A stretch of 64,000 bases of DNA from Candidatus Sericytochromatia bacterium (GTDB lineage Bacteria > Cyanobacteriota > Sericytochromatia > S15B-MN24 > VGJW01), in the NCBI GenBank assembly GCA_035285865.1, contig JAYKHS010000011.1:128172-192171 (forward strand), given 5' to 3'. Under the pieces are notes generated by a model. That model was not told the DNA's origin. It did not search any database and worked only from the letters and a program-made list of their open reading frames with translations. Both the position numbers and the translations under genes were made by a program. Below are positions 24,636 through 37,512 of the stretch, piece by piece (position 1 is the stretch's first letter; each line of letters begins with the position of its first letter).

Positions 24636-26018
24636 ATGTTGCGATGGCGGCCCGTCCTCTCGCTCATGCTGCTTGGTTGCGGTGCCACGGGCTGGACCGC
24701 TCCAACGGCGATCCCGGCGGCTGATCCACCGGTCATGGTGGTCCTCGGCCCGCAGGGCGCACACGTGACGATGGTACGGCGTCTCGCCTTTCCGGAAGGC
24801 CAGACCCATGCCGTGCTCGGTGGCCTGCCGCCGGGCCTCGAAGGCGGCAGCCTGTCCCTCGAAGGAGTACCCGACCTTGCCGAGATGCGCGTCCGTCCGC
24901 ACGCCGGGGACACGGCGAGCCTCGTGGCCGATGCCCACGGCAGCGAAGTCCTCGTGGAAACTCATCCAGGGGCCTCGCCCCGACCCGTTCGAATCGGCGG
25001 CCATCCGGAGCGTCCGCTCTACAAGATGGGAGAGGTCTGGTACGCGGAACTCCCGGGGAAGCTGGCATTGCCGTCTCTTCCGGCCGCAGCCGAGGGTACG
25101 CGGATCGACATTGGGCGCAAGGGCGGTGCGCCCCCTTGGCAGGGTCTTGCGACACTTCGCTTTCTCGATGGCCGGAGCCACTGGCGTTCGGACACCCGCA
25201 TCGTGCTTGATGCCACGGCGCGCCGGGCCGACCTCGAGAACTGGGCGCTCGTGCAGTGGGCTGCCGGCGGGTACGGCAACAGCGTAGGCCTCGACCTCGT
25301 CGTCCAGCCTCTTCGTCAGGGTCCCGGATGGGAGCTGCGGAGCCTCGCGGCCGACGCCATGGCACCCGCCCTGCAGGCGGAATCCGGCCTCTGGCGCTGG
25401 CGAGCGCCCGGTCCGGTTGACTCGGGAAGGAGCGGCCTTGTCCGCCTCCTATTGAGTACCAGAAGCGGTGTACCAGCGCGACTGGAGCAGGTATTCAGGC
25501 TCTCCGTGCCGTGGAATCCGTGGCAGGATGACACCCCGCATCGCGCAGAAACCGAATTGAAGTTGGGCACGGATGGGGGAACAGGCCTGAACTGTCCCCC
25601 AGGACGCTGGCAGGTCAGTCGTCGGGACGCCACAGGCCGCCCCATGCCCGTGGCACAAGGCCAGTCATCAGGTGCGCCCGTGGATGCCCGGCTCAGCCTG
25701 GGACTCGGTCAATCCCTCGACACCCTGGCAAGGCTGGTCCAGAAGCGCTGCACCGACGACGAGAAGGGTTACAGGCAGGTCGCCCTCGAGGTGCGATTGA
25801 CCCACGCAGGCAACGAACCGGCTACGGTTCACCTCTCGCTGCGGCCGGATGCGCCATGGAGGTGGCTCGCGGGCACGCCGTCGCCCGACCTGACCGGAAC
25901 GACGGAACTGGCGTGGACGTTGACCATGCCTCCCGGCAGCACGCGGTCGATCGAGGTGGAGATGACGCGCGTTGCCTCCGTCAGCCGTGTCGCCGAACCG
26001 GGACCCGGACCACAGTAA
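24636..26018 (+). CDS. DUF4139-like exported protein, probable lipoprotein
   Basis: GGAGG plus ATG at 24636, LLGC. N-terminal AHVTMVRRLAFPEG..GLP and C-terminal WTLTMPPG resemble DUF4140/DUF4139; divergent. Confidence 0.6.
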   Translation: MLRWRPVLSLMLLGCGATGWTAPTAIPAADPPVMVVLGPQGAHVTMVRRLAFPEGQTHAVLGGLPPGLEGGSLSLEGVPDLAEMRVRPHAGDTASLVADAHGSEVLVETHPGASPRPVRIGGHPERPLYKMGEVWYAELPGKLALPSLPAAAEGTRIDIGRKGGAPPWQGLATLRFLDGRSHWRSDTRIVLDATARRADLENWALVQWAAGGYGNSVGLDLVVQPLRQGPGWELRSLAADAMAPALQAESGLWRWRAPGPVDSGRSGLVRLLLSTRSGVPARLEQVFRLSVPWNPWQDDTPHRAETELKLGTDGGTGLNCPPGRWQVSRRDATGRPMPVAQGQSSGAPVDARLSLGLGQSLDTLARLVQKRCTDDEKGYRQVALEVRLTHAGNEPATVHLSLRPDAPWRWLAGTPSPDLTGTTELAWTLTMPPGSTRSIEVEMTRVASVSRVAEPGPGPQ

Positions 26019-26457
26019 TGCCGGAACGCGCGAATTTCAGGCGCAGACGCAGGAATTCGCCAGCACGCAAAGGGTGAACAGGGCCCATGAGCATCAGATG
26101 CAAGCCGTCCGGACTCAGCCTTACGGAATCTCGTGCGGGTATCCTGAGGCCGTCGACGGGGTTCATCAAGGCCCCTCCCCGGGGGCCTCGTCCTGCTGCG
26201 TGCACCCGCACCGCACGCACGCCCTCGGCCGACGCAGAGATCAACCGATCGGGCGCTCCGGAGCCCGTGATGCGCCCGTAGGCAGCAAGCACCTCGACTC
26301 CGGGCGGAGATTCGGCAATCCAGAGATCGACGCGAGGCCGAGCGACCGGGTCGGCACGTCCCGTGCCATCGGCAGATACCGACGCATCGACCGCCCACCC
26401 TGGGACCAGGCCGCCGAGAAAGAGGCACAGGCCAAGGCTGGAGATCAAGGTGCGCAC
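25981..26457 (-). CDS. PCu(A)C family periplasmic copper chaperone
   Basis: Signal peptide, AAY..DRLISAS, copper motif H-X11-M-X21-H-L-M. Confidence 0.88.
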   Translation of the reverse strand: MRTLISSLGLCLFLGGLVPGWAVDASVSADGTGRADPVARPRVDLWIAESPPGVEVLAAYGRITGSGAPDRLISASAEGVRAVRVHAAGRGPRGGALMNPVDGLRIPARDSVRLSPDGLHLMLMGPVHPLRAGEFLRLRLKFARSGITVVRVPVRRHG

Positions 26458-26466
26458 GTGTACATG

Positions 26467-27036
26467 CTACCCGCCGAGGGCCCGCGCGAGTTCGCCGCGA
26501 ACGAAAGGCGGGGAGAGATGGCCCCGCAGGCGACCCCGCGGATCAATCAGGAACACGTCAAGGGAGTGCTCGATCTCGCCGCCGCCCTCGGCTGCAGGGG
26601 CAAAGGCCGCACCGAACGCCTTGCAAACCGCTTGCAAGTCATCGGGATCCGCAATCCGGACCCCGAGAAATGCAGGATGGAAGTAGGCAACATATGAAGC
26701 GAGTTGCCGCGTCGCGTCCCGATCGGGATCCACGGTCACCATGACAACCTGGACGCGGTCGCCTCTGTTCCCGAGAGCGCGCACCTCCCTCGCAAGGTCC
26801 GAGAGTGCCGTCGGACAGGCCGTGGGGCACCCGCGGTAGCCGAAGTAGACGAGTCCCCACCTGCCGGCCAATCGCTCCCACGTGAACGGACGGCCATCCG
26901 AAGCCGCCATCGCGACATCGGGGAGTTCCGACAGCCGCACGGACCACCACGCCCCGGTGAGACCCACGGCCAGTACCGACAGCAGGGCTGCCAGCAAGGA
27001 CCGGGGTCCAAACCGAAGGCGTGGTCGTCCGCGCAC
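26467..27036 (-). CDS. SCO1/SenC family copper chaperone
   Basis: N-terminal TM, YFGYRGCPTACP, VTVDPDRD, conserved His in IEHS. Confidence 0.92.
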   Translation of the reverse strand: MRGRPRLRFGPRSLLAALLSVLAVGLTGAWWSVRLSELPDVAMAASDGRPFTWERLAGRWGLVYFGYRGCPTACPTALSDLAREVRALGNRGDRVQVVMVTVDPDRDATRQLASYVAYFHPAFLGVRIADPDDLQAVCKAFGAAFAPAAEGGGEIEHSLDVFLIDPRGRLRGHLSPPFVRGELARALGG

Positions 27037-27043
27037 GAAACGG

Positions 27044-28333
27044 CTACTTGACCAGAGTCCGGTCGATCACGGAGATGCTGCTTTCGGTAATGTTCGAGAC
27101 GAATGCCCGTGTTGCCGTGAAAGCGGCCTTGTGGTGCCCGACACCCACCTCAATGACATGCAGCACCTTGAAAGACACGGAGTCGATCACCGTGACCGAG
27201 GCGTCTCCATCGCCCATGACCCATATCTGATCCGGGCCACCGGCTTCAGGAGAAGGTACCCTGTAGACATGGACGGGCGAGGCTGGCTTTTCGTCCAGCC
27301 TGCGGCCAACCAGGACATGGGTCAGGATCTGGCCGCTCGCCAGATCGACGACAGCCACTCGGTCCGCTCCCTTGCAGGTGACAAAAGCCCTGGCCTTGTC
27401 AGCCGTCAGGACGGAATCCGTAGGGGTGGACAGGGTCGTGGCCTTGTTGACCACCATCCGGCCTTCGGGGTCATAGACCACGATGGTGTTGCTGGTCTTG
27501 TTGCCGAATACCAACCGATCCTTGCCGCCGACCAGACCCATCTCGATGGGGCCCGGCTCGTTGCCCTCCTTCAGGATGGTCTTGTCTCCCACGGGGGTGC
27601 CATCGGCAGGGGAGAGCGCCGATACGACGACGGCATGGTCGGGACCGCTGGGCGCCGCGACGAAGGCCTTGCCCACGGCAATGAAGCCCCCCGCACTGCC
27701 GGTTCCGACCGGAGCAAGGTCGAAGGAGGCCGTGGCAGGACTTGCGGCGAAATCCGTCACGCCCGCAACCGAGGGCCAGCGCACCCAGAAGACGCTTGCC
27801 GGCACGGCGGACTGCTGGAGAAGCGCCGTGCGATCATCCCACCACCCCACCCGGGAGCCGGGCTTGCCCTGCATCGGGATGAAGGCGACCTGATCCCGGG
27901 TCGTCGGGGACACGATCCGCATGCCTTTGGTGGCGCCATCGAGGGCAATGGCGACGCGGTGCCGAGGATCGGCCTTGGTGTAGCTGGGACTCGCCGAAAC
28001 CGTGGCACCGGGTGCCCCCGGGAAGATGGCCGCGAAGTCCAGAGTCTTCAGGACGGCCTTGATTCCGGCATCCGGCAACGTGGCGTCGAATTGCGGATCG
28101 ATGATCTCCAGCTTTCCTGCGGAAGGATTCGCATTGAAAACGAGGCCTTCGGCCACATCGATGCCGTGGGGCCCCTTGGCCGTAGGGATCGTGGCGATCG
28201 GCCGGAGTGCCGGTGCCCCGGATGTGGTGACCGTATTGATCGTGGTGTTGCCGGAAGTGCCGGTAGACGGGGTGCTGCACGCTGTCAGGATGGCAGCAAG
28301 CAGAGCAGTGGAAGTATGCGAGGACTGTCGCAT
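27044..28333 (-). CDS. YncE/YVTN-type beta-propeller lipoprotein
   Basis: LTAC lipobox; blade repeats GPHGIDV..VFNAN, NTIVVYD, AFVTCKGADRVAVVD, SVTVID, AFVSN..SISVID. Confidence 0.8.
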   Translation of the reverse strand: MRQSSHTSTALLAAILTACSTPSTGTSGNTTINTVTTSGAPALRPIATIPTAKGPHGIDVAEGLVFNANPSAGKLEIIDPQFDATLPDAGIKAVLKTLDFAAIFPGAPGATVSASPSYTKADPRHRVAIALDGATKGMRIVSPTTRDQVAFIPMQGKPGSRVGWWDDRTALLQQSAVPASVFWVRWPSVAGVTDFAASPATASFDLAPVGTGSAGGFIAVGKAFVAAPSGPDHAVVVSALSPADGTPVGDKTILKEGNEPGPIEMGLVGGKDRLVFGNKTSNTIVVYDPEGRMVVNKATTLSTPTDSVLTADKARAFVTCKGADRVAVVDLASGQILTHVLVGRRLDEKPASPVHVYRVPSPEAGGPDQIWVMGDGDASVTVIDSVSFKVLHVIEVGVGHHKAAFTATRAFVSNITESSISVIDRTLVK

Positions 28334-28359
28334 GGATTAGGAACCGATGCCTCCATGTA

Positions 28360-28385
28360 GCCTTGTCGGAACATTCCGACGAGGC
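28360..28385 (-). promoter_or_regulatory. intergenic stem-loop between the leader ORF and the beta-propeller gene
   Basis: Minus-strand RNA GCCUCGUCGGA-AUGU-UCCGACAAGGC (11 bp, one mismatch), 5 nt before GGAGG. Confidence 0.55.
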
Positions 28386-28403
28386 AGGGGTGAACGCGCT
28401 GAA

Positions 28404-28751
28404 TCAGGCGTTCGCGCGGCGCGGAGGCGGAATCGGCGGCCCCGGGGCCTGTTGGCTCGGCAGGTTCCTTAAACCGACCTGGGGCAACTGGGCAGGGCGT
28501 GCTTGCCTGACAGGCACGCACGCCGACCCGGGCATCGAGGCCTCCTCAAGAACCGGGGCCTCAGTGGACAGGCCCGTACCAGGGCTACCAGACTCCTCCA
28601 GCCTGTCCGGAGAGGCGCCACGCGCCCACGAGCAGGGATGAGCCAGGCCCTGGTGCAGGCAGACGCGGGTACAAGCGGCATCGGCGTTGCGCACGCCCAA
28701 CAGGACCACCACGAGTGACAGGATGCTGAGGAAGCGCAGCAGCACCCTCAC
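28404..28751 (-). CDS. 115-aa exported Cys/His, Pro-tailed leader protein (CutF/DUF2946-like)
   Basis: GTG overlaps the desaturase TGA (GTGA) with a GGGGG RBS. Signal peptide ending NADA, then CTRVC (CxxxC) with nearby His/Cys; C-terminus APGPPIPPPRRANA. Confidence 0.7.
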   Translation of the reverse strand: MRVLLRFLSILSLVVVLLGVRNADAACTRVCLHQGLAHPCSWARGASPDRLEESGSPGTGLSTEAPVLEEASMPGSACVPVRQARPAQLPQVGLRNLPSQQAPGPPIPPPRRANA

Positions 28752-29782
28752 GCCCCCTGCCTCCCGATCCGTACCACCGCGCGCGCGGAGCCCAAATAGC
28801 CACGTTCGGGAGCATCCTCGAAGCCGGCTTCGGCAAGGCGTGCGGCGATGCGGCGGTGGCCCTCCTCGAGGGCATACCACGGTACGAACGCAAAGGCATG
28901 ATGAATCGAGTGATAGTTCAGATAGTTGAAGAATCGCGCCATCAGGGGATGGGTCGCGACATTGCGGCAGCCGGCCCACTGGGTGTCGAAGAATGTCGGA
29001 CCTGCACCCCAGAGGCCGTCGTGCTCGATCTGGCCGCGGAACTGCATGATCGCGCCTACCACCCGTTCGAGAACGAACCACGTCAGGGCCCACGAAAGGG
29101 CCATCTCGAGGCCACGCCCACCCAGCATGTGCTCTCCGGCCCACCAAGATCCCGCGTACAAGGCCGCTTGAGTTGCCAGAATCCCCACCAAGTCGATCGC
29201 GAGCGCCGCGCGCATCTTCGGGTCCTCGTCCCGCAGGACGTAGGCGTGACGCGCCATCTCGAGAATGAGCCCGATGCCGCCCTCGAGGAACATCCGCACC
29301 CATAGGCGATGGCGCAGGCGCAGCCGCCCGAGGGGACCCGCGGCCGCCCAGTCCTCGGGAAGAGGTTCGATGCGTTCCGGATCACGCGTATCCGTACCGT
29401 TCCACTTGTGGTGGAGCAGGTGCAGACGGCCATAGGTCAGGTGAGGCCAGAAGAGGGGCCAGGACAGGACGGGCGGCAGGCCTTCGTCTATCCAGCGAAT
29501 GCCGGTCAGCGTCCGATGGATGGCATCGTGCGTCAGGATCATGGCCGAGGCCACCCAGAATGCCAGCAGCATCAAGGCCACGCCCTGCAGCAAGGGCTCC
29601 CGGAGCACGGCACCCGTCGCCACGGCAACCGCCAGGAGCACCATCACCAGGCCACGGAAGGCGATCTGGACGAGCCCGGGACCCGGACGCACGGTGGCCA
29701 GGTCCCGGACCAGAGCGGCAAGCTCGGCCACGGGCACGGCCCGGGAGTAGGCCGGTACCTCTCGTGACGCGGCTGACTGCAT
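28748..29782 (-). CDS. membrane fatty acid desaturase family protein
   Basis: Three His boxes HDAIH, HLLHH and HSIHH, with TM segments. Confidence 0.9.
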   Translation of the reverse strand: MQSAASREVPAYSRAVPVAELAALVRDLATVRPGPGLVQIAFRGLVMVLLAVAVATGAVLREPLLQGVALMLLAFWVASAMILTHDAIHRTLTGIRWIDEGLPPVLSWPLFWPHLTYGRLHLLHHKWNGTDTRDPERIEPLPEDWAAAGPLGRLRLRHRLWVRMFLEGGIGLILEMARHAYVLRDEDPKMRAALAIDLVGILATQAALYAGSWWAGEHMLGGRGLEMALSWALTWFVLERVVGAIMQFRGQIEHDGLWGAGPTFFDTQWAGCRNVATHPLMARFFNYLNYHSIHHAFAFVPWYALEEGHRRIAARLAEAGFEDAPERGYLGSARAVVRIGRQGA

Positions 29783-29849
29783 GGTTTCATCATGCCCCGG
29801 ATGGACCAAGGCTTTCAACCCCGATGACTCTGGACGAGGCCCGGAACCC

Positions 29850-30455
29850 TTGAATGAACAGGCCGTGGCGGATGCCTTCCGGGCGGGGCTTGGCATCCCG
29901 CTGGCCATGGCCTGGTCAGCGGATGCCGCACAAGGCCCCGAATGGAAGGGTAATCCGAATGCCCACGCCAGACGCATCTCCGCGTGGAGACGCGGCCGCA
30001 AGGCCCTCGGTGAGGTCATGGGGCAACTGGGTCGCAAGGAGGACCCGACGCGCTGGGCAGCACCGGGGCCCGGTCTGTCTCTCGCGCACACCGAGGACTG
30101 GGCGGTCGCCGTCGGGCGATTGGACGGCGGTCTCGTAGGCATTGATCTGGAGAATGTGGACCGTGAGGTCTCGCTCGGAGCCCTGCTGCGCCTCGGCATC
30201 GGCCCGGAGGTTTCGGGTGCTGAAGTGGTGGTGGCGCGCCTGGTGCTCTGGACGGCACTCGAAGCCGTGCACAAGGCCAGATGCGTCGAGGGTGGCCTTA
30301 TTCCCGGGCAGATCAGGCTGTTGCCCGAGGGGCCCGGGCACGGACGCGCCGAGGCTGACGGAAAGGACTACAGGTGGCTGGCGCTGCAGACCGAACGAGG
30401 CTTGGTCACAATCGCTGCCCCGATGGCTGATTCCGTGGAACGGCCCGCCACATGA
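29850..30455 (+). CDS. 4'-phosphopantetheinyl transferase superfamily protein
   Basis: SLAHT, VGIDLE, WTALEAVHKA motifs. TTG start with GAGG (uncertain). Confidence 0.75.
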   Translation: MNEQAVADAFRAGLGIPLAMAWSADAAQGPEWKGNPNAHARRISAWRRGRKALGEVMGQLGRKEDPTRWAAPGPGLSLAHTEDWAVAVGRLDGGLVGIDLENVDREVSLGALLRLGIGPEVSGAEVVVARLVLWTALEAVHKARCVEGGLIPGQIRLLPEGPGHGRAEADGKDYRWLALQTERGLVTIAAPMADSVERPAT

Positions 30456-30912
30456 CTACGTGGGGAAGTCCGACCAGCGTGAATGAGGCGCCGTGGGCCG
30501 TCCAACCTTCCCGCAGATAGAACTCCAGAGCGGCCATCCGGGCGTTGCACCAGACCATGCTGATACCTGCCTCAGCCAGTCGGGCATCCAACTCCCCGAG
30601 CAGCATTCGGCCAATGCCACGGGAACGCCAGTCGGGGGCAACGGCCATGCCGCGCAACTGACACGGCGCACCGGGCAACTCGGGATGCGAATTGGGCACG
30701 ACCGTACAGCAGCCGACCAGATTTCCTCCGTACCGGGCAACGAGGTGCAGGGCGCGCGGGTCGTCGTCCTCGCGGTAGACGCTGTCCTGCTCCGGGCGCC
30801 CGGGCCGCAGGACGGCATGGCGAAGGGGCCTTATCGTCGCAGCGTCCGTGCGCACGACCTCCACCCGATCCCGCAGGCTGAATTCCTGCTCGACTCCGGA
30901 TTCGTTCGCCAT
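30406..30912 (-). CDS. GNAT family N-acetyltransferase
   Basis: LRHAVLRPG, QLRGMAV..RSRGIG, WCNAR..FY. Confidence 0.9.
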   Translation of the reverse strand: MANESGVEQEFSLRDRVEVVRTDAATIRPLRHAVLRPGRPEQDSVYREDDDPRALHLVARYGGNLVGCCTVVPNSHPELPGAPCQLRGMAVAPDWRSRGIGRMLLGELDARLAEAGISMVWCNARMAALEFYLREGWTAHGASFTLVGLPHVVMWRAVPRNQPSGQRL

Positions 30913-30918
30913 GCGGAG

Positions 30919-31809
30919 TCAACCGAAGGACGGAACCGAGGGCGTCGGCTCCACGGGGATATCCGGAGCAGGGGGCAATTCGGGAACTCCTGAAGGAGCA
31001 ACGGACGGCAGTTGTCCCGGTGATGCCGATGGTGAGGGAACGGTTTGTGGAGGACTCGCCACTCCGCCTTGCATCGGCACCGGCAGGAGGGCATCGAAGG
31101 CCGCCCTGAGCGCCTCCTGCTCCGAGCGGATCCGCTCCAGCTCCTCCGTGACGTCCGCAAAAGTTCTCAAGGCATCCAGGGCCAAGGCATCCGCCTCGTC
31201 TTCGAGGTCCAGCGTCAGGCGGCGAAAAGCCTCCGCCGAAGCGTCATCGAGCACCTGCCCCTGGCCGAAGGTCTTCCGGAACCCGGCCGTTGCAAGGGTG
31301 GTCTCGAAGTTGACGGGCTGGTTCTCTCGATCGAAAACCAGACTTTCAAGGACAAGCAGACGCTCGCCGACCGTCACGACGGTGCGCAATGCGACCGGCT
31401 TGGAACCTGGGGCCACGACCGTGAAAAAGCCACGAGCATCCGTGGTCTTAACGAGCGTCCGTCCATCCTGAAGCGTCACCTCCACTTCGGCTCCGGCCAC
31501 CGGCAGGTCCGCCTCCTCGACTGCCTGCGCGAGCAGACGACGACCACTGCCTCGTTGCTGCAGGCTGCCCGAGCCATTGGCCACCAGGGAACCTTCGGCG
31601 TTGACGAGAATCCCTGCTCCGGACTGCTCCCGAACCCTTCTCTGGACCAGAACGCGCCCCGTCCACGCATCCACGGACACGGGCACAGGAGTGGGCGCGG
31701 AGAACGCTGCGGAATCCTGCAGAAGCACGACCGCGCCGCTCGGCGCGCCATCCGTCCGGACGCACCCGCAGACCAGAAGCAGAAGGCACATCACCGAACA
31801 GAATCGCAC
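30919..31809 (-). CDS. hypothetical lipoprotein with Pro/Ser-rich tail
   Basis: 3' part of the 931-aa track ORF. LVCGC lipobox, PVAGAEV..TTDARGFF beta-sandwich motif. Confidence 0.6.
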   Translation of the reverse strand: MRFCSVMCLLLLVCGCVRTDGAPSGAVVLLQDSAAFSAPTPVPVSVDAWTGRVLVQRRVREQSGAGILVNAEGSLVANGSGSLQQRGSGRRLLAQAVEEADLPVAGAEVEVTLQDGRTLVKTTDARGFFTVVAPGSKPVALRTVVTVGERLLVLESLVFDRENQPVNFETTLATAGFRKTFGQGQVLDDASAEAFRRLTLDLEDEADALALDALRTFADVTEELERIRSEQEALRAAFDALLPVPMQGGVASPPQTVPSPSASPGQLPSVAPSGVPELPPAPDIPVEPTPSVPSFG

Positions 31810-31983
31810 GACGCTTACCCCCTGCCGCAGACCCTCTTGTCCGTGCATACCCCGTGAGCCGAGACGGCGACGACAAGAGACCGCGATGATTGCCCCTTGT
31901 TTTTCCGCAATTTTAACAAGTTCTTCACCTTTGCCCACGATGAATCCCTTGGCCGTGACAACCCCCACCCCGGAGGTCCTTCC

Positions 31984-33537
31984 GTGAACCGACTGCCACG
32001 CACCCTCGCCGCCACGCTGGCCCTCGCCGTGACGGGCTGTGGTACCGGCCTCCAGGCCCCGGCCACCCAGCCTGTTGCGGTGCAGGTGCGTACCGAGGCC
32101 CAGTTGCCGCGCTTCGCCCCACCGCCTGCGGCTGATGAGGCCGTGGCGGGCGAGGCCATCGTACGGTTCGGCATCGGTGAAGTCGCCCCGCTGAGTCTGC
32201 CGGGCGCGACCCGCCTGCGCCCGGTGCCCGGGGTCGAGAACGCCTGGGTCTATCGCCTGTCGTCCGGTGCCTATACGGAAGGCACGACCCAGTCGTGGGA
32301 CGCGCTCAAGGCCATCGCCTACGCCGAACCGGTCTACACGTACCACACCATGGCCTATCCCGTGGGCGAGGACCAGACCCTGTACGGGCTCAATGTCATC
32401 CAGGCCCCCAAGGCGTGGGATCGCGTGACGGCAAAGCGCGATGTCATCGTTGCCGTCATCGATACCGGTGTCGACTACAACCACCCGGATCTGGCCGGGG
32501 CCGTCATCAAGGGGCCGGACATCGTGAACGACGATGATGACCCGATGGACGATCAGGGACATGGCACGCACTGTGCCGGTACAATCGGGGCGGCCGCGAA
32601 CGGTGCAGGCATCGTCGGCGTTGCTCATGGTGCGCGAATCCTGGCCATCAAGGTCCTCAATGCGCGTGGTTCGGGTAACAACGTGGACATCGCCGCCGGC
32701 ATCGATGCGGCAGTCAAGGGTGGAGCCAAGGTCATCAGCCTCAGCCTTGGCGGCCCCGAGTCCCGCGCGACCCGGGACGCCATTCGCGCAGCCACCGAGA
32801 AGGGCGTGCTGTGCGTGGCTGCGGCCGGCAACGACAACAGCAAGCGCCCCAGTTTCCCCGGTGCACAGCCGGAAGCGCTCGGGGTGGGGTCGTCCGATTC
32901 CCGCGACCGCAGGTCGACCTTCTCCAATTACGGCGATACGGTCGACATCTCGGCGCCAGGTACCGACATCATGTCCTTGGCCGTGGGCGGCGGATACCGC
33001 AAGCTCTCCGGGACCAGCATGGCGACCCCGCACGTTGCCGGTGCCGCCGCCGTATTGTTGTCCCAGCAGCCAGACCTTGGCGTGGCTCGGCTCCGACAGC
33101 TGCTGGAGACCTCGGGTGACAAGGTCACCGGCTTCACGGAAACTCCCGCCGTCAAGCGCCTGAATCTGGCCAAGGCCCTCGATTCCCTCGATGCTCCGGC
33201 CGTCGAGGTCCCCGGGACGCCCGGCGGCCCGGATGCGCCGGTCGAGGACAGACAGCCCGCGGTGCAAGGTCTCGCCATCGGAACCAAGTCCACGAGCGCA
33301 GTCCTGTCCTGGAAGACGGAGGTTCCCGCCCGTTGCACGGTGACCTATGGCCTCGGTAATGCCTTGGACCACACCGTTGAGGTTGGTTCGGCCTTCACCT
33401 CCGATCACAAGGTCACGATCAAGGACCTGAAGCGCATGAAGACCTACTCCTTCCGTATCGTCACCACCGCCCGGAATGGACAGTCGCTCACGACGCGCAC
33501 CCGGACCTTCAAGACCCGCCTGATCGGATCCCTCTGA
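31984..33537 (+). CDS. S8 family serine peptidase, lipoprotein, with C-terminal FN3-like domain
   Basis: GGAGG plus GTG at 31984, VTGC lipobox. VAVIDTG, HGTHCAG, AAGN, GTSMATPHV; tail TSAVLSWKT..VTYG..HKVTIKDL..TYSFRI. Confidence 0.93.
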   Translation: MNRLPRTLAATLALAVTGCGTGLQAPATQPVAVQVRTEAQLPRFAPPPAADEAVAGEAIVRFGIGEVAPLSLPGATRLRPVPGVENAWVYRLSSGAYTEGTTQSWDALKAIAYAEPVYTYHTMAYPVGEDQTLYGLNVIQAPKAWDRVTAKRDVIVAVIDTGVDYNHPDLAGAVIKGPDIVNDDDDPMDDQGHGTHCAGTIGAAANGAGIVGVAHGARILAIKVLNARGSGNNVDIAAGIDAAVKGGAKVISLSLGGPESRATRDAIRAATEKGVLCVAAAGNDNSKRPSFPGAQPEALGVGSSDSRDRRSTFSNYGDTVDISAPGTDIMSLAVGGGYRKLSGTSMATPHVAGAAAVLLSQQPDLGVARLRQLLETSGDKVTGFTETPAVKRLNLAKALDSLDAPAVEVPGTPGGPDAPVEDRQPAVQGLAIGTKSTSAVLSWKTEVPARCTVTYGLGNALDHTVEVGSAFTSDHKVTIKDLKRMKTYSFRIVTTARNGQSLTTRTRTFKTRLIGSL

Positions 33538-34759
33538 GGTTTCGAAGACGAGCCGAGGCCACCCTTCTGCCCACACCGGCGAGGGTGGCCTCTGCGTTGA
33601 GCAGTCCCGCCCCGTGACGCTCATCCGGCCCGGGCGGGCCCAGGTCCTCGGCACCCCTCCGGAGTGACGTCGCAACTTCCGCGGGGGCCATCCCGGGGGC
33701 GAGGCTTCTGACAAGAGCGGCCACGCCCGCCACGTGGGGCGCAGCCATGCTCGTGCCGGAGAGCGGCCACCACCGACCTCGAGGAAGCGTCGAGAGGATG
33801 CGGGTGCCCGGGGCCACCAGCGTCATCCAGACACCGTAGTTCGAATAGTCTGCCAGTCCATCTCCGGGCGATGTCGCACCGACAGCCAGGACCCCGCGGC
33901 AGGCGGCAGGATAGAAGGCCTGCCAACTGGCGCTGTTGCCCATGGCCGCCACGACGACGCTTCCCTTTGCCAAGGCGTGGTCCACGGAAGCTTGCTTGGC
34001 CAAGGCACCTTCACGGCTGCCGATGCTGAGGTTGATGACGTCCGCACCGAGATCAGCGGCCTTGATGATGCCCTCGCAGACCCGAGCCACGGTCCCTTCC
34101 CCCTGGGCATCCATGACCCGGACCGGGACCAGCGTCACGCCGGGTGCGACACCGGATATGCCCAAGCCATCATCTGCCGTGGCACCGATGATGCCGGCCA
34201 CGTGCGTGCCATGGCCATTGGGGTCGGCGGGGTCGGTATCCCCGTCGACCAAGTCGATACCGGGCCCGAGGCGACCCCGCAGGTCCGGGTGCGTCCCGTC
34301 GACACCCGAGTCCACGACAGCGACCCGGACACCCGGCACCCCGCGCGTCCTTGACCACGCCCTGCGTGCGCCGATGCGGTCAAAGCCCCACTGCTGGCCG
34401 CCCGAACCGTTCTCATCCAGCCACGAAGGCCCCTGCCAAACCGAGGCCGGCGGCAAGACCTCGCGAGCGTTCTGCTCCATCCACCGCGCACCCTCGATCG
34501 CCGGACGCCTGGCCTGCCGCGCACGCACCAGCCAGAGCCCGGCCCCGAGAGGACGACTTGCCTCGAGCGCATCCCCACCGGAGACGGCCTCAGGTCGAGA
34601 CACCGAAACGTCGAGCGCCACGATCCACTCACGGCCCGTGGCAGCGGTCTCGGGCCGGAAACCTGTATCCGGCATCCCGATTTCCGGCAGCGCCGACACG
34701 TTGCCACACGCCGAGAGCAGCAGCGGAAGGGCCACCATCCGCATTCCGATACCAGCCAT
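33509..34759 (-). CDS. S8 family serine peptidase, lipoprotein
   Basis: GGAGGG plus ATG at 34759, LSAC lipobox. VAVVDSG, HGTHVAG, GTSMAAPHV. Confidence 0.92.
   Translation of the reverse strand: MAGIGMRMVALPLLLSACGNVSALPEIGMPDTGFRPETAATGREWIVALDVSVSRPEAVSGGDALEASRPLGAGLWLVRARQARRPAIEGARWMEQNAREVLPPASVWQGPSWLDENGSGGQQWGFDRIGARRAWSRTRGVPGVRVAVVDSGVDGTHPDLRGRLGPGIDLVDGDTDPADPNGHGTHVAGIIGATADDGLGISGVAPGVTLVPVRVMDAQGEGTVARVCEGIIKAADLGADVINLSIGSREGALAKQASVDHALAKGSVVVAAMGNSASWQAFYPAACRGVLAVGATSPGDGLADYSNYGVWMTLVAPGTRILSTLPRGRWWPLSGTSMAAPHVAGVAALVRSLAPGMAPAEVATSLRRGAEDLGPPGPDERHGAGLLNAEATLAGVGRRVASARLRNLRGIRSGGS
33555..33592. terminator. hairpin just after the plus-strand S8 stop, within the 3' end of the convergent S8 gene
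   Basis: GAGGCCACCCT...AGGGTGGCCTC, perfect 11-bp inverted repeat. Confidence 0.55.
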
Positions 34760-34762
34760 TGA

Positions 34763-37512
<2,750 letters not shown>

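Follow-up and report, generated by a model that had tools for sequence, protein, structure and literature searches.

A conserved leader gene with a predicted stall site and RNA switch precedes copper-chaperone genes in Candidatus Sericytochromatia

Introduction

The closest described systems to the locus reported here are two bacterial leader proteins whose translation ties copper to the expression of downstream genes. CutF, encoded in cutFOG of Rhodobacter capsulatus, is a protein of about 115–118 residues with a Sec signal, a CxxxC motif and a PPPR sequence near its stop codon (PMC8456105, PMC9973294), and its tail ends PEPEGPPPRL (PMC8456105). As described in these reports, copper induces a stall in CutF translation that releases the Shine-Dalgarno (SD) sequence downstream (PMC8456105; bioRxiv 2025.02.05.636593), which follows a short intergenic region and is masked by mRNA structure, the stem-loop being described as intergenic, and a PPP-to-PAP mutant loses induction of the downstream product CutO (bioRxiv 2025.02.05.636593). 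The CutF stall is described as occurring at PPP, as sensitive to EF-P and as effective only in cis. The cargo is a multicopper oxidase. About 45 residues separate the CutF metal site from the last proline, a distance that in the CutF model puts the metal site in the SecY vestibule. The genes found most often beside CutF-like genes include PCuAC (PMC9973294 section 11).

CruR (Bp2923) of Bordetella pertussis, a DUF2946 (PF11162) protein, likewise combines an export signal, a cysteine motif (CxxC), a terminal di-proline (RAPP) and a conserved spacer length (PMC9426467). The spacing in DUF2946 leaders is 45 ± 2 residues (PMC9426467 section 9), and adding five residues strongly reduced the copper response of CruR (PMC9426467). 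Copper relieves the CruR stall, and Rho termination over 162 nt follows (PMC9426467). DUF2946 leaders stand first in their operons, with ScoC and PcuAC among their frequent partners (PMC9426467 section 10), and the cargo of CruR-type operons is of the copper-supply kind, comprising SCO, PCuAC, OprC-type receptors and MbnPH (PMC9426467). In both systems, as these sources describe them, the stalled ribosome is the ON state, and the two differ in what copper does to the stall. How metal binding by a nascent chain alters stalling, and why CutF and CruR answer copper oppositely, are questions that the present locus touches.

Results

We analysed a 64,000-nucleotide stretch of Candidatus Sericytochromatia DNA, referred to throughout as the window. 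An earlier note on it had proposed a CutF- or CruR-like leader of 115 residues in the 3′ part of a longer open reading frame, directly upstream of beta-propeller, SCO and PCuAC genes. The ORF is present at 28404..28751 and lies on the minus strand, which had been left unstated, with a GTG start at 28751 and a TGA end at 28404; the longer frame is a 299-residue ORF (29303-28404). We rejected the 299-residue frame as the gene itself, as its extension is not conserved and the open frame measures 325, 265, 207 and 138 residues in four genomes, and the plus-strand reading of 28404-28751 is ruled out by stops in that frame. The leader GTG overlaps the TGA of an upstream desaturase gene (GTGA), and an SD-like GGGAGG lies in the desaturase 3′ end at 28760..28765 (minus strand), 8 nt upstream of the GTG. 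GGAGG is similarly placed in two other genomes of the genus (G001 and G003) and in a metagenome contig (L059), and the signal is weaker in a third genome (G002).

The encoded protein runs from a basic n-region through 14 hydrophobic residues and RNADA to ACTRVCLHQGLAHPCSW, a low-complexity linker and the C-terminal APGPPIPPPRRANA, which is followed by the stop codon. Signal peptides are recognised by their n-, h- and c-regions and lipoproteins by a lipobox. Judged by eye from sequence and hydropathy, residues 1-25 (28677..28751, minus strand) form a predicted Sec signal peptide with a basic n-region, a 14-residue h-region, an A-D-A or A-D-S cleavage motif and no lipobox. A crude scan of 16,928 frames in the genome gave 44 candidates with a signal and a PP; the leader has the highest N-terminal 11-residue mean hydropathy among them (3.21), and none of the others was convincing by eye as a further leader. 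The mature N-terminus carries a predicted metal site, C27-x3-C31-L-H33-x4-H38-x-C40-S-W42 (28626..28673, minus strand; residues 27-42, CTRVCLHQGLAHPCSW), in which C27, C31, H33, H38, C40 and W42 are invariant in four of four genomes. A fast-drifting linker of fixed length (residues 43-104, 62 residues; 28440..28625, minus strand) leads to the predicted stall site, a P-x-x-PPPR tail at 28419..28439 (minus strand) with P105 and P108-R111 invariant.

The leader has no Pfam or NCBIfam match at E≤1, and its ESM Atlas model is unstructured (pTM 0.20). The nearest named Atlas clusters (DUF2946, CzcI, DUF6660 and DUF6769, at 0.93-0.94) share few features with it and serve as a lead only. A relation to DUF2946, for which the earlier note had suggested a profile search, was not borne out: PF11162 gave no match at E≤1 to the leader and none in 47 genomes of the class, although the same profile found its positive controls in Caulobacter and Deinococcus. 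The profile did not match any of the 37 sister proteins described below either, and membership in DUF2946 was rejected.

We found the leader in all three other genomes of the genus and in the metagenome contig, giving five sequences that are kin. The gene order desaturase-leader-propeller-SCO-PCuAC is kept in 3/3 of these other genomes, and the signal, CxxxC-x-H-x4-H-x-C and PPPR are kept in 4/4 genus genomes. An alignment of the four genome leaders has 115 columns and no gaps; C27, R29, C31, L32, H33, H38, C40, S41, W42, E69, P105 and P108-R111 are invariant (n=4). Across six genome pairs, pN/pS was 0.06-0.30 in the tip and 0-0.36 in the tail, compared to 0.65-1.07 in the linker (uncorrected proportions near saturation, from the four genomes and leaving out L059), and linker identity across genus pairs was 10-31%. 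The distance from CSW to PPPR is 72 residues in all five leaders, in contrast to a desaturase tail that varies between 50 and 56 residues and a propeller linker of 40-41. Purifying selection acts on the tip and the tail and not on the linker, which evolves almost neutrally while its length is kept.

GC-rich windows hold many long open frames, and a leader with no family match might be such a shadow frame instead of a gene. No other reading frame there is stop-free across the four genus genomes; the leader's motifs are invariant at low pN/pS, its start and length are shared, and independent gene calls exist, with NCBI/nr records listing three homologues as 115-aa hypothetical proteins. The frame and selection tests effectively refute the shadow-frame reading, which we consider exceedingly improbable. 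By its pattern of sequence conservation, the leader is a real, conserved gene and belongs to a new sequence family. When 5.8 billion proteins were searched by profile, these five leaders were the only ones found among 2978 candidates of similar length.

The unit opens with a fatty-acid-desaturase-family gene of 344 residues (28748..29782, minus strand; PF00487, E 1.5e-26), whose junction with the leader is the same in 4/4 genus genomes and in L059. Six nucleotides before its ATG lies a predicted sigma-70 promoter, TTGAAA-18-CATGAT (29789..29818, minus strand; a consensus match only), which is likely the start of the transcription unit and would give a leaderless start. The promoter search found 2 sites against 0.6 expected, and the -10 box (CATGAT or CATCAT) stands 6 nt before the desaturase ATG in 4/4 genus genomes, with TTGAAA in 3/4. 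We saw no conserved promoter directly before the leader, which therefore probably stands second in the unit. We detected the desaturase in 7 of 47 genomes, and the one homologue examined in another family has unrelated neighbours, so the arrangement looks like a genus-specific fusion; we found no link between the desaturase and copper.

Downstream, after 70 nt and on the same strand, the propeller, SCO and PCuAC genes follow as the earlier note had described. The first (27044..28333, minus strand) encodes a YncE-like beta-propeller, a predicted lipoprotein with invariant His56, His355 and His401; its Pfam matches fall below cut-off, and the fold was assigned by sequence matches to YncE, NirF and surface-layer propellers, with an AlphaFold model that is all-beta (mean pLDDT 85.8). 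Its link to copper is by neighbourhood only. The SCO1/SenC copper chaperone (26467..27036, minus strand; PF02630, E 4.9e-32) retains CPTAC and the downstream His. The periplasmic copper chaperone PCuAC (25981..26457, minus strand; PF04314, E 9.2e-23), the last gene before a convergent ORF, retains H-x11-M-x21-H-x-M, which we take to be the PCuAC copper motif. SCO and PCuAC stand downstream of the leader in 4/4 genus genomes, the copper-homeostasis content that is also looked for in DUF2946 operons. Also encoded in the leader genome are CuA-type COX1/COX2, EF-P and CopA, together with a second SCO close to cox. The assembly, which is 83% complete, yielded neither cytochrome bd nor a multicopper oxidase. 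The host, suspected earlier to be non-proteobacterial, is indeed Ca. Sericytochromatia.

We then compared the leader with the rule set for CutF-like proteins in section 25 of PMC9973294. It is 115 residues long, within the limit of 150 (5/5 leaders); its PP falls within 15 residues of the C-terminus, as PPPR plus four residues (5/5); C27-x3-C31 supplies an invariant CxxxC; the leader-propeller distance is 64-75 nt; and the signal shows the n/h/c pattern with A-x-A/S, judged by eye and hydropathy. The leader thus agrees with the CutF-like rules on length, PP, CxxxC and intergenic distance and is likened to CutF by rules and anatomy, not by direct sequence homology; the proposed CutF-like anatomy (predicted signal, CxxxC, Pro-rich tail) is supported. 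It resembles CutF in length, predicted Sec signal, CxxxC, PPPR near the stop, short intergenic region and, by prediction, a downstream SD masked by mRNA structure, and resembles CruR in its predicted export signal, cysteine motif, terminal di-proline, conserved spacer length and copper-supply cargo. It departs from CutF in its host, in standing second in a unit where it is coupled to the desaturase, in its propeller-SCO-PCuAC cargo as opposed to a multicopper oxidase, and in a predicted anti-SD that lies in the PPPR codons within a three-way junction as opposed to an intergenic stem-loop. Its metal site, at the mature N-terminus, is 70-83 residues from the last proline, compared to about 45 in CutF; C31 and C40 are 79 and 70 residues away, compared to 45 ± 2 in DUF2946 leaders. 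CruR differs further in its motifs (CxxC and RAPP versus CxxxC and PPPR), its position at the head of the operon, and its output, Rho termination over 162 nt versus predicted SD masking over a 70-nt gap.

On two points the earlier note went too far. It spoke of a different cargo set, although SCO and PCuAC are already frequent partners of such leaders (PMC9426467, PMC9973294) and only the propeller goes unlisted in the sections cited. The cargo is therefore not new apart from the propeller and, in relatives, an outer-membrane barrel, since SCO, PCuAC, OprC-type receptors and MbnPH are known partners. It also spoke of the same mechanism, which is too loose, as CutF and CruR are described as acting in opposite directions and this leader has no DUF2946 match, has a spacing of 70-83 residues and is the second gene of its unit. 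We found no paper on such leaders in Sericytochromatia, although members could be listed in two supplements, File S1 (PMC9973294) and Table S1 (PMC9426467).

Folding of the leader's last 20 codons with the intergenic region and the next start suggests that the PPPR codons double as part of an RNA switch. The SD of the propeller gene, GGAGG at 28350..28354, is predicted to be masked by the leader tail through an anti-SD, GCCUCC, in the PPPR codons at 28428-28423 (both minus strand). The SD paired with the end of the leader coding sequence at P≥0.75 in 12 of 16 leaders (5/5 in the genus) compared to 10 of 150 control gene pairs (a random sample of 221 pairs that were crudely called), and in none of 20 control pairs with Pro-rich tails (of 351). 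Three further leaders (L075-L077) were left out of the RNA tests, two being cut by contig ends and one spurious. The RNAalifold consensus is a three-way junction formed by the anti-SD/SD helix, a hairpin P2 over the leader stop codon (28392..28413, minus strand; 10 pairs, 2 with two-sided changes, 92% of cells paired) and an intergenic hairpin P3 (28360..28385, minus strand; two stacked helices, 5 pairs with two-sided changes). Seven of its 27 pairs changed on both sides, a count reached in 0 of 500 shuffles, with the structure derived from the same five related sequences; the SD helix itself had no two-sided change. The window segment folded with z = -2.5, and Rfam gave no match at E≤1 over 25500-31000.

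Codon choice in the tail is skewed. CCT, a rare codon, makes up 21 of 45 leader PPP codons (L078, which has no PPP, left out of the count) compared to 11% of genomic Pro codons, and at least one CCT is present in 14/15 leaders compared to 69/212 genomic PPP runs; the CCT codon creates CCUCC, the anti-SD. Much of the anti-SD pairing follows from the peptide, because Pro codons are C-rich: synonymous shuffles kept a pairing of 0.6-0.7 in three of four genus genomes, and the observed pairing ranked in the top 9% of synonymous shuffles for 10/16 leaders (6/100 for the window, 60/100 for G001). The pairing also varied with the segment folded, 10/15 leaders reaching 0.75 or more in another segment and L074 giving 0.05 versus 0.97.

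A translating ribosome occupies a defined length of mRNA, which we used to model its effect. Covering the mRNA to 15 nt past the second Pro lowered the cost of opening the ribosome-binding site in the window from 17.1 to 10.2 kcal/mol, a drop at the 97th percentile of controls; the drop was 3.0-5.2 kcal/mol in the other genus leaders and less than 1 in four sister leaders. With a blocking footprint, SD accessibility in the window rose only to 0.34, and it was unchanged in several relatives. Together, the folding models predict that leader-tail codons mask the downstream SD. The spacer between the propeller SD and ATG is 16 nt in the window (28334-28349) compared to 9-10 nt in homologues, and the extra bases ATCGG are predicted to lengthen the masking helix by pairing with Pro-Ile codons.

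To place the leader among its relatives, we followed the propeller gene, for which 36 of 61 genomes gave a match. Its partner in other families is a PF13557-like barrel that carries an N-terminal CxxCxC. Of the wide loci, 20 in all, three carried the genus-type leader and seven a Cys-rich ORF with a signal and PPPR before the barrel; in the other 10 no leader was detected. A profile of the 7 Cys-rich leaders matched 10/10 genomes of their family and 2/8 of another, the new hits preceding a barrel (L072, L073, L074) or a TonB receptor (L078); leader and propeller share a contig in 8 other genomes, or 9 counting the contig-split case of G022. A search of 1.84 billion representatives with a joint leader profile gave 40 clusters at E≤0.001, 37 of them outside the genus. 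None of these 37 sister proteins has a Pfam family above cut-off and none matches PF11162 (0/37). PP occurs within the last 15 residues of 35/37, 2-9 residues from the C-terminus; the joint profile includes the Pro tail, although some hits matched by their N-terminal part only and still end in PP. The last Cys before the linker is 54-68 residues from the last Pro and the first Cys 80-129 (34 proteins, leaving out P0041, a doubtful hit at 74). Across the phylum, the sister-family profile matched 12 of 201 genomes, all in the host's order, and was not found in those searched outside it.

Like the window leader, the sister leaders have a signal, a PR-x-C-x-x-x-G-x-x-x-C start and an xPP[R/W] end; they too are predicted to mask the SD, and they stand ahead of the same propeller gene. 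They differ in having 6-10 Cys in a metallothionein-like pattern as opposed to 3, in heading their own unit, often behind a TAnnnT box 6 nt before the ATG, and in having an outer-membrane barrel (PF13557) between leader and propeller. Using hhalign, the window leader matched one sister profile (A2) at 94% (E 1.4e-7, signal included) and a wider alignment (A6) at 56% over 19 columns. The shared start, tail and propeller make homology between the window leader and the sister family probable. We grade it probable and not firm because neither sister profile finds the genus leaders, both missing all four genus genomes.

Discussion

The sequence family, its geometry and its predicted stall-codon RNA switch are what is distinctive here, the regulator class and most of the cargo being already known. 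We think it quite probable that the leader acts as a stalling switch on downstream translation; granted such a switch, copper is just as probably its ligand; and granted both, it is moderately likely that the genes are on at low copper. In the full scheme, to which we give about an even chance, stalling at PPP would free the SD and turn on propeller-SCO-PCuAC, and copper-driven folding outside SecY would likely release the stall. By prediction, co-translational Sec export would have placed the Cys/His tip in the periplasm by the time PPP reaches the peptidyl-transferase centre. The PPPR codons, when free, would pair with the downstream SD in the three-way junction, as covariation and codon bias suggest, and a ribosome on PPP would cover the anti-SD and make the ribosome-binding site about 7 kcal/mol cheaper to open. 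That the ribosome pauses at PPPR we infer from CutF and CruR, and that the ligand would be copper from these together with the motif and the cargo; metal binding by the tip is predicted from its residues. When copper is scarce the pause would persist and the scavenging and assembly chaperones would be made. In the weakest step, copper would fold the tip 68-70 residues from the centre, just outside SecY, and the chain would be pulled free; the ribosome would then terminate and the SD be masked again.

The copper-release direction is favoured by the supply-side cargo, as for CruR, and by the tip, which ends 68-70 residues before the last Pro. Tail and output, being CutF-like, point the other way, so the direction is only moderately favoured. 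By sequence, the cargo is supply-side throughout the family: SCO and PCuAC here, a CxxCxC barrel in relatives, a paralogue in L078 before a TIGR01778-like TonB receptor, and MbnH beside a barrel-propeller pair in another family. It takes about 50 extended residues to reach the periplasmic end of SecY, and folding of LepB pulls at about 70 (bioRxiv 2021.02.06.430026), although the authors ascribe LepB's 70 partly to its membrane anchoring; the match to the tip distance is suggestive only.

The same switch could instead answer as CutF does, with copper blocking a disulfide-driven folding of the tip and prolonging the pause, so that the chaperones are made with copper present. The PPPR of the leader tail is identical to that of CutF, whose output is SD unmasking (PMC8456105; bioRxiv 2025.02.05.636593), the three conserved Cys could form disulfides, and copper chaperones can buffer excess copper in a genome where no multicopper oxidase was found. 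However, the family cargo is of the uptake and assembly type (TonB copper-receptor-like, barrel, SCO, PCuAC), the class that CruR is described as switching off in copper (PMC9426467), and the 45 residues that place the CutF site in the SecY vestibule compare with 70-83 here; we hold this direction unlikely, if deserving of attention. A stalling leader might also sense another cue, whether a different thiophilic metal, periplasmic thiol oxidation or, as in SecM, export speed. The metallothionein-like pattern of the sister family would suit this, disulfide-driven folding can exert force from the periplasm (PMC7513700), and SCO and PCuAC follow the propeller in only one of 8 sister loci (L038), each examined over its full width or to the contig end. 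Both downstream chaperones nonetheless keep intact copper motifs in the genus, CxxxC with His is an SCO/CutF-type copper signature, and the unit has no sec genes, which leaves a non-copper cue less likely still.

The leader might, finally, be no more than a small secreted copper-binding peptide or chaperone that is expressed with its operon and causes no regulatory pause. It is translationally coupled to the upstream gene like any operon member and is not first in its unit, unlike DUF2946 leaders. Yet only 16 residues of the mature chain and the PPPR tail are conserved, the Atlas model has no structure, and the neutral linker of fixed length, near-terminal PP, CCT bias and SD masking would have no role in a released protein, so we regard this as improbable.

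The leader approaches a minimal natural construct, in which a short conserved tip is joined to a PPPR tail by a neutral spacer whose length is fixed. The spacing falls within the range where force-profile work detects periplasmic folding, so a pulling-force model is directly testable through linker length. More speculatively, and we hold this doubtful, it could be a separately built sensor specific to Sericytochromatia that gauges periplasmic copper by folding force: a 16-residue Cys/His knot on a sequence-free 62-residue ruler, which would keep it at the distance from which periplasmic folding pulls on the ribosome, with stall codons doubling as anti-SD (about 15 nt serving as both arrest site and RNA switch), as a module moved inside a genus operon where it would gate only the distal copper genes. 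Leaders of this kind would bring such control to a family that Pfam does not recognise, in the non-photosynthetic sister class of cyanobacteria. They also point to candidate parts for copper uptake, namely the His-bearing propeller lipoprotein and the outer-membrane barrel tipped with CxxCxC.

Additional observations on the window and related loci

Upstream of the desaturase and divergent from it, the window holds a weak phosphopantetheinyl-transferase-like ORF (29781-30455, plus strand; PF01648, E 0.22) that was not found in G002, and adjoining it a GNAT ORF (30406-30912, minus strand). Two divergent ORFs that resemble secreted peptidases of the subtilisin (S8) type, with motifs judged by eye, lie at 31897-33537 (plus) and 33509-34942 (minus). 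The PF13557-like barrel of the leader genome itself (L081:1498-2562, G000:C26), whose N-terminus carries CTTCGC, does not adjoin the propeller; no leader was seen before it, and a thioredoxin-like ORF and a secretin-like gene lie upstream. Six sister leaders (L038, L040, L072, L073, L076 and L078) have the same -10-type box directly before their own ATG. The TAnnnT-type box 6 nt before an ATG with no SD, found in these six and at 29782-29818 of the window, suggests that leaderless mRNAs are common in this class.

Among the related loci, L078 (1483-2644) encodes a paralogous Cys-rich leader with an RPPW end before a TonB-dependent receptor. This receptor's best NCBIfam hit, from a partial sequence and below cut-off, is to the copper receptor TIGR01778. 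In another family, barrel-propeller pairs stand behind an MbnH-family di-heme enzyme in L047 (5520-9109), where TIGR04039 scores above cut-off, and in L050, no leader intervening. In L037 (6134-14193), L041 and L043, a second barrel-propeller copy is preceded by a TonB receptor, HmuY and a CbiX-like gene, again with no leader, and the scan of L037 places this copy in a heme/tetrapyrrole context. Genes for cytochrome bd, a copper-free oxidase, are divergent from the leader of G011 (L040:3323-5756), and an ORF similar to cytochrome bd subunit I lies upstream in L072. The N- and C-terminal halves of a sister leader occupy two contig ends of G022 (L098 at the end of C439 and L103 at the end of C63), the second directly before a barrel, and are probably one gene split by assembly.
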